Assembly: GCF_003991155.1 (NCBI RefSeq)
Contig: NZ_CP031293.1
Direction: 5' to 3' (one strand)
Length of the DNA stretch: 64,000 nucleotides
Origin: Escherichia coli
GTDB lineage: Bacteria > Pseudomonadota > Gammaproteobacteria > Enterobacterales > Enterobacteriaceae
The notes under the pieces were generated by a model. That model did not search any database, was not told the DNA's origin, and was given only the letters and a program-made list of their open reading frames with translations. Below, in pieces: positions 13,557 to 17,180 of the stretch. The position numbers and the translations under genes are program-made. The stretch's first letter is position 1. Each line of letters opens with the position of its first letter.

Positions 13557-14225
13557 ATGCGTACCACATCATTTGCGAAAGTTGCAGCTTTATGCGGCTT
13601 GTTGGCTCTGTCTGGTTGTGCCTCTAAAATCACCCAGCCAGATAAATATTCTGGTTTTTTAAACAATTACTCTGATTTAAAAGAAACAACCTCAGCAACA
13701 GGTAAACCTGTTTTACGTTGGGTAGACCCGAGTTTTGATCAAAGCAAATATGACAGCATCGTCTGGAACCCAATCACTTATTATCCGGTACCAAAACCTT
13801 CTACCCAGGTAGGGCAGAAAGTTCTGGATAAAATTTTGAACTATACCAACACCGAAATGAAAGAAGCGATAGCGCAGCGTAAACCACTGGTTACCACCGC
13901 TGGGCCGCGTAGTCTGATTTTCCGTGGGGCCATTACCGGTGTAGATACCAGCAAAGAAGGGCTGCAATTCTATGAAGTGGTTCCTGTTGCATTAGTGGTT
14001 GCGGGGACGCAAATGGCTACAGGCCACCGTACCATGGATACTCGCCTCTATTTTGAAGGTGAGCTGATTGATGCAGCGACTAATAAACCGGTTATCAAAG
14101 TCGTTCGTCAGGGCGAAGGTAAAGACCTGAATAACGAAAGTACGCCAATGGCTTTCGAAAATATTAAACAAGTTATTGATGACATGGCGACCGATGCCAC
14201 CATGTTTGACGTTAACAAAAAGTAG
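13557..14225 (+). CDS. ydcL: Lipoprotein YdcL
   Basis: 222-aa ORF with lipobox LALSGCAS after the signal peptide. Confidence 0.8.
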   Translation: MRTTSFAKVAALCGLLALSGCASKITQPDKYSGFLNNYSDLKETTSATGKPVLRWVDPSFDQSKYDSIVWNPITYYPVPKPSTQVGQKVLDKILNYTNTEMKEAIAQRKPLVTTAGPRSLIFRGAITGVDTSKEGLQFYEVVPVALVVAGTQMATGHRTMDTRLYFEGELIDAATNKPVIKVVRQGEGKDLNNESTPMAFENIKQVIDDMATDATMFDVNKK

Positions 14226-14233
14226 TTCCAGAC

Positions 14234-14258
14234 GCGCCATCGTTAGATGGCGCTTTTT
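14234..14258 (+). terminator. Rho-independent terminator of ydcL
   Basis: gcgccatc gtta gatggcgc perfect 8-bp stem followed by ttttt. Confidence 0.7.
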
Positions 14259-14259
14259 A

Positions 14260-14749
14260 TCCGGTGCGCCGTAAAACCCCGTCCTTCAGGGCGGGGATAT
14301 AAGGCGCGGTTTTGCACCTGACCAGGTGTTTGCTGTTGTTCAATGTATTGGCGGATGACGGATATTGGCGCACCTCCGCAGCTACTGGCAAAATAGCCAG
14401 GACTCCACAAAACGCCTTTGTAGTAATACCTGACTGCAATATCTGGTCGATCTCGTCGCAGTAACCTACCCGATACGCCTTTGAGGCTGTTTACCAGACT
14501 GGATATCGCCAGTTTGGGAGGTTAGTTAATTAACAAATGGACGTGATCTGGTTCGCCATCCATTTCAACCAGTTCAGCTTCAAAATCAGCACATACATTT
14601 GAAAAGTAAGTGCGTAGTTTTTCTGTCGCGTCATGGTCAAAAATCTGGCGTCGGTATCTGGTGACAAAGACCAGATGAACATGCATCAGGAAAACACAAT
14701 GCCTTCCACGCCGGATATCGGTTTCTTTTTTCACAGACCAAAGTATCAT
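14260..14749 (-). pseudogene. tnpA: IS200-type Y1 (HUH) transposase TnpA, frameshifted
   Basis: N-terminal 75-aa ORF (14522..14749) ends just after the HUH motif (HVHLVFVTRYRRQIF...DHVHLLIN); the C-terminal homology (...LWSPGYFASSCGGAPISVIRQYIEQQ) continues in a different frame downstream. Confidence 0.7.
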
Positions 14750-14756
14750 TTGACCT

Positions 14757-15965
14757 GTGAAACGATTACAGGCATTTAAATTCCAGTTAAGACCAGGTGG
14801 TCAACAGGAGTGTGAAATGAGGCGCTTAGCAGGCGCATGTCGTTTCGTTTTCAATCGTGCTCTGGCACGTCAGAATGAGAATCATGAGGCCGGTAATAAA
14901 TACATCCCTTACGGGAAAATGGCTTCCTGGCTGGTTGAGTGGAAAAATGCCACTGAAACGCAATGGCTTAAAGATTCTCCCTCACAGCCATTGCAACAGT
15001 CACTGAAAGACCTTGAGCGGGCTTACAAAAACTTCTTCCGGAAGCGGGCTGCTTTTCCCCGATTCAAAAAGCGGGGACAGAATGATGCATTCCGCTACCC
15101 GCAGGGCGTTAAGCTCGATCAGGAAAACAGCCGTATTTTTCTGCCGAAACTGGGCTGGATGCGCTACCGGAATAGCCGTCAGGTCACGGGTGTTGTGAAA
15201 AATGTCACTGTCAGCCAGTCCTGCGGTAAGTGGTACATCAGTATTCAGACAGAAAGTGAAGTATCCACTCCGGCTCACCCTTCAGCATCAATGGTCGGGC
15301 TGGATGCTGGCGTGGCTAAACTCGCCACGCTGTCAGATGGCACAGTCTTTGAGCCTGTAAACAGTTTTCAGAAAAACCAGAAGACGCTGGCGAGACTTCA
15401 GCGACAGTTAAGCCGCAAGGTCAAATTCAGCAACAACTGGCAGAAGCAGAAACGCAAAATACAGCGACTGCATTCCTGTATCGCAAATATCCGCAGGGAC
15501 TACCTTCACAAAGTCACAACGGCCGTCAGCAAAAACCACGCAATGATAGTCATTGAGGATTTGAAGGTCAGCAACATGTCAAAGTCAGCAGCGGGTACGG
15601 TCAGCCAGCCGGGGCGCAATGTCCGGGCAAAATCAGGTTTAAACCGTTCGATACTGGATCAGGGCTGGTATGAAATGCGCCGCCAGCTTGAGTACAAGCA
15701 GCTCTGGCGTGGCGGTCAGGTGCTTGCTGTTCCGCCAGCGTATACAAGCCAGCGTTGCGCGTACTGTGGTCATACAGCGAAAGAGAACCGCCTGTCACAA
15801 AGTAAATTCAGATGCCAGGTATGTGGATATACAGCGAACGCCGATGTAAATGGCGCTCGTAACATTTTAGCGGCGGGGCACGCCGTTCTTGCCTGTGGAG
15901 AGATGGTGCAGTCAGGCCGCCCGTTGAAGCAGGAACCCACCGAAATGATTCAGGCGACAGCCTGA
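14757..15965 (+). CDS. insQ: TnpB (IS605 OrfB family; RuvC-like RNA-guided endonuclease)
   Basis: 402-aa ORF; N-terminal KFQLRP...RFVFNRAL; C-terminal zinc finger CAYCGH...CQVCGY and a RuvC-like region. Confidence 0.85.
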
Positions 15966-16004
15966 ACGTAGCAGGGATCCACGTCCTTCAGGGCGTGGAG
16001 GATG

Positions 16005-17180
16005 TCAATATCGGTTTCTGTCAGCGATTAAATTCAACACCACGTAACAAACGCCTCCGGCAATTAATCCCCAAAACGCAGAACCAATCCCGGCCAGCGT
16101 CAATCCACTTGCCGTTACCAGAAATGCCACCACCGCCGCGTCGCGCTCACGCTCATTATGCAGCGCCTGATACAAACTGCCGCCAATGGTACTCAACAGC
16201 GCCAGACCTGCCAGCATCTGGATCCAACTTACGGGCAGGGCAGCCATCATCCCGGTAATGGCACTACCAAACAGACCTGCGAGCAAATAGAAAATGCCTG
16301 CAACGGCAGCGGCCAGCCAACGTTGATCTTTATCCGGATGCGCTTCCGGGCTTTGGCAAATAGCCGCGGTGATTGCCGCAATACCGACGGAATAAACGCC
16401 GAAAGGGGAAAAAACCAGTGCCAGCAATCCAGTAAATACAATTAATGGCGAAACAGGAGCCGAATATCCGGCGGCTTTCATTGCTGCGATACCCGGTGCG
16501 TTTTGCGATGCCATCGTCACCAGAAAAAGGGGGAGTGCAACGCTCAGGCTGTGAGCAAACGAAAAATCAGGGCTAATATAAGTGGGGAGAACGGGTTTAA
16601 AGACAACATCAGTTGTGACAACGTCACCTTGCGCGATAACGATCACGACCCCAATAATCATCGCGGCAATTACCGCATAGCGCGGCGCAACGGCCCTGGT
16701 TGCCAGCCATACCAGCAACATACTGCCACACAACGTAAATTGACCATCCAGGCTCGCAAACGCCTGTAAACCAAAGCGTAATAAAATCCCGGCAAGCATT
16801 GCCGCCGCAAGCGAGTGCGGAATAATGCGCATCAGACGAGCAAAGAGTCCCGTTATGCCGCAGAGGACTATTAACGCGTTGGTGACAATAAAAACGCCGA
16901 TGGTTTCGTTAAGTGTTAGTCCCTGCAATCCGGTGACCAACAAAGCCGCGCCAGGCGTTGACCATGCGGTGAGAACAGGTACGCGATACCATAATGTCAG
17001 AGCCAGCGTACTGACGCCCATTACCAGCCCCAGCGCCGTCATCCAGCCAGAGATTTGTGCAGTGGTGGCTCCGGCGACAATCGCTGCTTGCCAGATTATT
17101 GCCGCTGAACTGGCGTAGCCAATTAATACCGCCAGAAACCCCGCCAGTAGCGTGGGTGGAGGAATAGAAAACAGACGCAT
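16005..17180 (-). CDS. ydcO: BenE-family benzoate transporter homolog
   Basis: ORF 16005..17303; start at MRLFSIPPPTLLAGFLAVLIGY gives 391 aa; polytopic membrane protein. Confidence 0.8.
   Translation of the reverse strand: MRLFSIPPPTLLAGFLAVLIGYASSAAIIWQAAIVAGATTAQISGWMTALGLVMGVSTLALTLWYRVPVLTAWSTPGAALLVTGLQGLTLNETIGVFIVTNALIVLCGITGLFARLMRIIPHSLAAAMLAGILLRFGLQAFASLDGQFTLCGSMLLVWLATRAVAPRYAVIAAMIIGVVIVIAQGDVVTTDVVFKPVLPTYISPDFSFAHSLSVALPLFLVTMASQNAPGIAAMKAAGYSAPVSPLIVFTGLLALVFSPFGVYSVGIAAITAAICQSPEAHPDKDQRWLAAAVAGIFYLLAGLFGSAITGMMAALPVSWIQMLAGLALLSTIGGSLYQALHNERERDAAVVAFLVTASGLTLAGIGSAFWGLIAGGVCYVVLNLIADRNRY

Follow-up and report, generated by a model that had tools for sequence, protein, structure and literature searches.

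A nonsense codon interrupts tnpA in the IS609 copy between ydcL and ydcO of Escherichia coli

INTRODUCTION

In IS608 of Helicobacter pylori, tnpA and tnpB are co-directional, and in ISDra2 of Deinococcus radiodurans the TnpB TAM is TTGAT. In characterized TnpB systems, the omegaRNA is encoded by the 3' part of tnpB together with the right end of the element. IS608 inserts 3' of TTAC and is cleaved on the right at TCAA, 10 nt 3' of the hairpin; its left guide GL (AAAG) recognizes CL (TTAC), and each cleavage site is read by the tetranucleotide located 5' of the respective hairpin foot (PMC3201880). In the TnpA dimers of IS608, both monomers contribute in trans to each active site (PMC3201880).

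The copy of IS609 annotated in E. coli K-12 MG1655 comprises yncK/b4578 (tnpA) and insQ/b1432 (tnpB). According to Umenhoffer et al., a stop codon interrupts yncK in this copy, which lacks transposition activity (PMC2891674), and Lee et al. (2016) recorded 0 new IS609 copies among the 758 IS insertions that they found in mutation-accumulation lines derived from K-12 (PMC5009759). The published inactivity pertains to the K-12 allele (Leu96 to TGA) and not to the Tyr76-to-TAA allele described below. A 2026 study names the IS609 TnpB as one of the purified orthologues chosen for testing (PMC12781874). A literature search on insQ/yncK function retrieved the MDS42 statement, the mutation-accumulation data, and the 2026 TnpB purification paper only.

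This work analyzes an IS609 copy in a 64,000-nt stretch of the E. coli contig NZ_CP031293.1 (assembly GCF_003991155.1), referred to here as the window; all coordinates are window positions.

RESULTS

Identity and boundaries of the element

Based on the annotation of related genomes, the gene order at this chromosomal locus is tehA-tehB-ydcL-[element]-ydcO-sutR-rlhA. Sequence similar to window positions 14200 to 16060 is present in 5,423 of 5,426 complete E. coli genomes, and the same interval is 100% identical to strain 2016C-3878. The limits of the element were set by comparison with a genome lacking the insertion, in which the ydcL-ydcO junction reads ...GGCGCTTTTTAT/TATCGGTTTC... (the slash marks the insertion point). 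Both junctions are thereby fixed unambiguously, giving an insertion sequence of 1,748 bp at 14261 to 16008 (plus strand). These limits and this length are those of the K-12 MG1655 feature "insertion sequence:IS609" (1503161 to 1504908), which lies at the same ydcL-ydcO locus and is 99.0% identical over the full 1,748 bp. A copy in O157:H7, annotated as "IS609 family transposase," is 97.9% identical over the same length. The name IS609 as used here takes these annotated K-12 and O157 copies as its reference.

The features of the element are those of the IS200/IS605 family: a Y1/HUH tnpA (a pseudogene in this copy), subterminal palindromes on the same strand, no terminal inverted repeats between the termini, and no target duplication. 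The empty site (...TTTTTAT/TATCGG...), when aligned to the occupied one, shows that insertion took place 3' of the target without duplicating it. We are highly confident, within the overall interpretation developed below, that 14261 to 16008 is a chromosomal copy of IS609, a "peel-and-paste" single-strand transposon. An earlier note, made from the sequence alone, had placed an IS200/IS605 element between ydcL and ydcO; the annotated flanking genes, the match to Pfam family PF01797, and the near-identity to annotated IS609 all bear this out.

The K-12 copy resembles the window copy in having a tnpA pseudogene with an internal stop, an intact 402-aa insQ, and CAG at the position of the natural tnpA stop. 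It differs in the lesion itself: K-12 retains Tyr76 (TAT) and has Leu96 changed from TTA to TGA, whereas the window retains Leu96 and has Tyr76 changed to TAA. The O157:H7 copy lies elsewhere, in a TetR-family gene next to ytfB, and shares with the window copy its length, ends, TTTAT target, and gene arrangement. Unlike the window copy, it has an intact tnpA (product WP_000604943.1), with Tyr76 present and TAG following Gly143, and a G-to-T change at 15995 in the right hairpin.

IS609 is inserted within the ydcO stop codon and 3' of a TTTAT that forms the tail of the ydcL terminator T-tract; the terminator stem is located at 14234 to 14253. On the minus strand, the end of ydcO reads ...CGA TA/A in the empty allele and CGA TAT TGA in the occupied allele (window 16005 to 16013). 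Because the element lies inside the stop codon, ydcO gains one C-terminal Tyr and ends at a TGA supplied by the right end of the IS, its length being 1,173 nt in the empty allele and 1,176 nt in the occupied one.

The tnpA lesion and its distribution

The tnpA pseudogene, the counterpart of K-12 yncK/b4578, occupies 14318 to 14749 on the minus strand and comprises 143 codons plus the original stop position, as delimited with PF01797 and an alignment to WP_000604943.1. An open reading frame at 14522 to 14749 (minus strand) encodes 75 aa with the C terminus DHVHLLIN, followed by a stop. This N-terminal piece matches the Pfam Y1_Tnp profile (PF01797) at positions 1 to 58 of 121 (E value, 1.6e-17), and the C-terminal piece (PPKLAISS...WSPGYFASSCGGAPISVIRQYIEQQ) matches positions 60 to 121 (E value, 1.3e-16). 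Exactly one profile position is thus missing between the two pieces; the intact homologue scores 141.5 bits against the same profile. Translation in one frame from 14749 to 14240 gives MILWS...DHVHLLIN, a stop, and then PPKLAISSLVNSLKGVSGRLL...WSPGYFASSCGGAPISVIRQYIEQQQTPGQ..., such that both halves lie in the same frame, broken by a lone TAA at 14522 to 14524. This in-frame, inactivating TAA (minus strand) replaces Tyr76 (TAT) through a single-nucleotide difference at 14522, where the window has T and the intact copy has A. The TAT-to-TAA substitution is the sole change at the break, and, over the region in which they align, the window tnpA and the intact O157:H7 tnpA (WP_000604943.1, 143 aa) differ by zero indels. 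Consistently, for the locus in 2016C-3878, which is 100% identical, PGAP notes "internal stop" rather than "frameshifted." The lesion is a nonsense substitution, Tyr76 TAT to TAA, and the frame is unbroken elsewhere. A further change removes the natural stop, TAG having become CAG at 14318 to 14320 (minus strand), and the frame now extends through the left hairpin to 14243; base 14320 is G in all 12 ydcL-ydcO copies compared (see below) and A in the O157 copy.

The IS609 TnpA matches the IS608 TnpA structure 2a6m with an E value of 7e-19, the HUH motif and the catalytic Tyr being aligned. H69-V70-H71 form the HUH motif of the tnpA product, and its catalytic Tyr, Y135, aligns to Y127 of IS608. 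The Y135 codon is present, located downstream of the TAA at codon 76; a stop at this codon yields a 75-aa product that keeps H69 and H71 and is without the nucleophile Tyr135. The tnpA of the window copy is a pseudogene, and we infer that transposase activity has been lost.

Allele frequencies were gauged by counting exact 41-mers centered on the site of interest in the 5,426 complete genomes. The TAA version was retrieved from 1,023 genomes, at up to three places per genome, and the TAT version from 4,892, some of which have several copies. In K-12 tnpA, where Tyr76 is kept, the stop at Leu96 (TTA to TGA) corresponds to window position 14463, and its 41-mer is found in 2,726 genomes. Sequences were then compared for 12 ydcL-ydcO copies (those of the window, 2016C-3878, and K-12, plus nine sampled at regular intervals along the list ranked by similarity), which represent only 12 of about 3,400 occupied ydcL-ydcO loci. 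In all 12, tnpA is disabled, through five distinct lesions: TAA at Tyr76, TGA at Leu96, TAA at Glu62, a 5-bp deletion at 14634 to 14638, and a 1-bp deletion at 14708. Several copies combine lesions. The Tyr76 TAA is common to five of the 12, the window included; some lineages sharing it also have the 5-bp deletion, and others have additional stops and deletions. The tnpA lesion of the window is a lineage-specific allele, distinct from that of K-12. Substitutions in tnpA among the 12 copies comprise 9 non-synonymous changes, 4 synonymous changes, and 3 stops, with no shortage of non-synonymous changes. An excess of nonsense changes as a sign of selected inactivation was not significant in these copies (P = 0.12 to 0.15; the test counted 2 of 16 substitutions as nonsense, compared to 3 stops in the tally).

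The earlier note had read the lesion as a frameshift, with the conserved C-terminal region continuing in another frame. Such a reading has some appeal, as other E. coli lineages do carry frameshifting deletions at this locus (the 5-bp and 1-bp deletions listed above), and the C-terminal part is listed as a separate 55-aa open reading frame (14243 to 14410), which can mimic another frame. However, 14749 and 14410 differ by 339 nt, a multiple of 3, the single-frame translation crosses both halves with one TAA, and the window tnpA has neither of these deletions and no indel relative to the intact copy. The single-frame translation and the indel-free alignment led us to reject a frameshift, to which we assign virtually no probability. 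What the note had said of the 75-aa HUH-containing N terminus, of its premature end, and of the pseudogene status of the transposase agrees with the open reading frame, the PF01797 match, and the premature TAA; the C-terminal region does follow, in the same frame. It might also be argued that the stop codon arose in sequencing or assembly and that the gene is really intact, the allele being only one base from the intact one. The TAA allele is not a sequencing error, because its exact 41-mer occurs in 1,023 of the 5,426 complete genomes, which stem from unrelated projects. In addition, the TAA recurs among the compared ydcL-ydcO copies, and the natural stop codon would be absent even without it. 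The allele counts thus rule out this candidate as well, and an artifact has practically no chance of being the explanation.

Ends, hairpins, and target site

The left subterminal imperfect palindrome (IPL) lies at 14277 to 14296 (plus strand; CCCCGTCCTTCAGGGCGGGG) and forms an 8-bp stem with one T.G mismatch and a TTCA loop. It is nested in a longer imperfect palindrome at 14266 to 14307, and its predicted DNA fold has a free energy of -14.1 kcal/mol (z score, -2.6). The right counterpart (IPR) lies at 15979 to 15998 (plus strand; CCACGTCCTTCAGGGCGTGG). The two hairpins are alike at 18 of 20 nt; the two differences, C3 to A and G18 to T, are partners of one base pair, and pairing is therefore kept. 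In both, a stem of 8 to 9 bp closes a TTCA loop and is interrupted by a T.G mismatch at an identical position. A search of the 64 kb that tolerated up to 3 mismatches matched these two sites alone, and 100 shuffles gave 0. Two near-identical hairpins in the same orientation had been described in the earlier note; the hairpins stand, with coordinates corrected by 1 nt on the left and 3 nt on the right.

Stem sequences vary among strains. On the left, K-12 and most other ydcL-ydcO copies have a G-to-A change at 14281 that adds a mismatch, while the window has G, as in the intact copy. On the right, A is replaced by T at 15981 in three copies, and the G-to-T change at 15995 noted above is found in the intact O157 copy. 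Among the compared strains, the window carries the best-paired version of both hairpins.

The target sequence TTTAT is located at 14256 to 14260 (plus strand), 5' of the left end, where it forms the left cleavage site and the predicted TnpB TAM. Five independent insertion loci were compared: the left end is immediately preceded by TTTAT at four and by CTTAT at one (a plasmid), the sequences flanking the right end are unrelated to one another, and every copy terminates in ...GTCAA. BLAST matches at other loci all begin at window position 14256. The right cleavage site, TCAA (16005 to 16008, plus strand), ends 10 nt 3' of the hairpin foot, and 16005 to 16007 read on the minus strand are the TGA at which ydcO now ends. 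A putative left guide GL, AAAA (14273 to 14276, plus strand), is located 5' of the hairpin foot and opposite the TTAT of the target, with which it probably pairs, by analogy with IS608.

Like IS608, IS609 has subterminal palindromes on the top strand, a target of 4 to 5 nt without duplication, and a TCAA 10 nt 3' of the hairpin. The target differs, being TTAT or TTTAT instead of TTAC, as does the distance between the left cleavage site and the hairpin (16 nt versus 19). When TTAT/AAAA of IS609 is set against TTAC/AAAG of IS608, the fourth position differs on both sides. The orientation of the two genes is also unlike that in IS608, tnpA and tnpB being divergent in IS609.

The tnpB gene and predicted omegaRNA

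The tnpB gene (insQ; 14757 to 15965, plus strand) is intact and encodes a 402-aa protein of the RNA-guided endonuclease family, annotated in RefSeq as a putative RNA-guided DNA endonuclease. InsQ contains the Pfam domains HTH_OrfB_IS605, OrfB_IS605, and Cas12f1-like_TNB (PF12323, PF01385, and PF07282), all above cutoffs. The RuvC catalytic triad (D183/E267/D363) and both CxxC pairs of zinc-finger cysteines (C334/C337...C353/C356) are present. Comparison to the ISDra2 TnpB structures 8bf8, 8exa, and 8h1j gave an E value of 1.9e-55, with residues 3 to 376 aligned and the RuvC triad and zinc-finger cysteines in common.

In the 12 ydcL-ydcO copies, tnpB has zero stops and zero indels over 1,209 bp, and all 402 aa are intact. 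At the lesion rate of tnpA (taken in this calculation as four lesions in 432 bp), about 11 lesions would be expected in tnpB, and the probability of observing none is about 1e-5, a rough figure that treats lesions as independent events. The pN/pS ratio of tnpB among these copies is 0.29, and 20 of 38 substitutions are non-synonymous, a number below the neutral expectation (P = 0.001 to 0.014, depending on the transition bias).

As with ISDra2 tnpB, the 3' end of insQ abuts the right end of the element, the expected place for an omegaRNA. A predicted omegaRNA scaffold of approximate extent was placed at 15838 to 16008 (plus strand), covering the tnpB 3' end and the right end, as in characterized TnpB systems (PMC8612924). 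An Rfam scan for a curated omegaRNA family found nothing at the gathering score. Three of four weak, sub-threshold matches fell at the expected spot (15838 to 16018), namely, HgcC at 15902 to 16018 (22 bits versus a 50-bit cutoff; E value, 0.04), sot0042 at 15838 to 15999, and RAGATH-18 at 15892 to 15935; the fourth was an unrelated microRNA. The RNA fold of 15830 to 16024 has a z score of -3.1. By analogy with the characterized systems, we infer that an omegaRNA is derived from the tnpB 3' end and the right end. The guide is predicted to be the flank TATCGGTTTCTGTCAG (16009 to 16024, plus strand), a role that would follow from the TnpB mechanism. The predicted TAM of InsQ is TTTAT, unlike that of ISDra2.

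The sub-threshold HgcC alignment sets the right hairpin and its AGGAUGUCAA tail against the consensus CCccCGcccUUuAgggCGggGAGGAGGUCAG of this archaeal family, with which the hairpin and the AGGAnGUCA tail agree. This alignment hints that the 3' part of the archaeal HgcC family is a TnpB-type right end or omegaRNA terminus.

The start codons of tnpA (ATG, 14749 to 14747) and tnpB (GTG, 14757) are 7 bp apart, and, because the genes diverge, the promoter of each must lie inside the other. A sigma-70 promoter scan of the element returned one weak minus-strand match, located inside tnpB, compared to 2.0 expected in shuffles. An imperfect 14-nt palindrome at 14729 to 14762 (TTTCACAGACCAAA / TTTGACCTGTGAAA, 86% complementary) covers both start codons and could serve as a regulatory element common to the two genes or form an RNA hairpin at their starts.

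An exact 12-nt repeat, ATATCGGTTTCT, occurs at 14715 to 14726, in the 5' coding region of tnpA, and at 16008 to 16019, which comprises the last IS base and 11 nt of the predicted guide. As a candidate TnpB self-target, the repeat was rejected: no TTTAT precedes the internal site, and the internal site is conserved in IS609 at other loci. Of the 16-mers in the window, 0.15% (anchored) to 0.7% have 11 nt or more in common with the element, and the repeat is probably a coincidence.

Polymorphism and mobility

An uninterrupted ydcL-ydcO junction is found in 1,984 of the 5,426 genomes (37%), O157:H7 among them; presence of the insertion is therefore a polymorphism. These empty sites are compatible with ancestral absence, with precise excision, and with replacement through recombination. 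The Tyr76-TAA and CAG allele also occurs at a second locus in strain Z0117EC0051, in a DUF3251 gene next to nrdR. This second site, like the presence of the TAA 41-mer at up to three places per genome, points to mobilization of dead copies in trans or to gene conversion. The earlier note had regarded the element as frozen in place. This holds insofar as autonomous transposition is not expected, and none was observed for the K-12 copy (PMC5009759; PMC2891674); it does not hold for the site, which is polymorphic, or for the TAA allele, which recurs at the second locus.

Shortened IS609 derivatives of 1,500 bp (between yhgE and hslO) and 1,336 bp (on a plasmid of ETEC6335) have lost most of tnpA and keep both hairpin ends together with a full-length tnpB annotated as intact. 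These derivatives resemble tnpB-only elements arising from IS609.

DISCUSSION

The data are very probably best explained by an IS609 copy whose tnpA was killed by the Tyr76-to-TAA substitution and whose cis-acting parts and tnpB remain intact. The element is inserted 3' of TTTAT, where the ydcL terminator ends, and within the ydcO stop codon. The 75-aa TnpA, without the C-terminal helix bearing Tyr135, would be unable to cut or rejoin the ends. The parts that act in cis are intact, namely, the TTTAT target, both top-strand palindromes, and the TCAA right cleavage site, as are tnpB/insQ and presumably the omegaRNA derived from the right end. With tnpA dead and the ends intact, the element would be non-autonomous: it would not move by itself, and an intact IS609 TnpA supplied in trans could move the copy.

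An active transposase might nevertheless still be made, either by read-through or suppression of the TAA or by complementation between an HUH-containing fragment and a Tyr-containing fragment. The frame downstream of the TAA is open, and missense changes relative to the intact copy are limited to N51K and V132A; the base after the TAA is C, and assembly of the active site in trans is established for IS608 (PMC3201880). On the other hand, the deletions and stops added in sister lineages fit neutral decay and not a selected recoding signal, nor does tnpA show any deficit of non-synonymous changes. The first in-frame start after the TAA is a TTG at codon 114, from which part of the fold would be omitted. 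TAA is moreover the stop codon at which termination is most efficient in E. coli, which counts against read-through. Continued production of an active transposase is thus very improbable. A different proposal is that the element is no longer a functional transposon and that tnpB/insQ and its guide RNA are selected for a function of their own, be it selfish maintenance of the allele or a role for the host, loss of tnpA being part of the transition. This would account for the dead tnpA in 12 of 12 copies, with 5 distinct lesions within 432 bp, next to a tnpB under the constraint described above, and for the shortened derivatives elsewhere that lost tnpA and kept tnpB and both ends. However, the 12 copies are a small sample of the occupied loci, a pN/pS of 0.29 indicates weak constraint, and retention of tnpB without tnpA has already been described and is common in the IS200/IS605 family. 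We consider this proposal unlikely, and it would add to the preferred explanation, that of a non-autonomous IS609, without excluding it. The empty ydcL-ydcO allele contains an exact match to the predicted guide TATCGGTTTCTGTCAG, immediately 3' of TTTAT. A more specific version, somewhat less likely again, is that tnpB/insQ came under selection after repeated and independent death of tnpA, with InsQ and this guide acting as a chromosomal allele drive that cleaves empty alleles as they enter the cell or arise by recombination and so maintains the insertion, or with InsQ co-opted by the host for a function at the 3' end of ydcO.

Both the K-12 and RefSeq annotation and the literature already cover the element with its boundaries, the inactive transposase gene, and insQ, and the locus is an ordinary, known feature. 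The gain for annotation is small, consisting of the correction of the lesion to a nonsense codon and its recognition as a lineage-specific allele distinct from that of K-12. Of modest broader interest are the several independent tnpA knockouts beside a tnpB that is intact in every one of the 12 copies, at a site that is itself polymorphic. The ydcL-ydcO locus is a convenient natural system for asking what role TnpB has after loss of the transposase.
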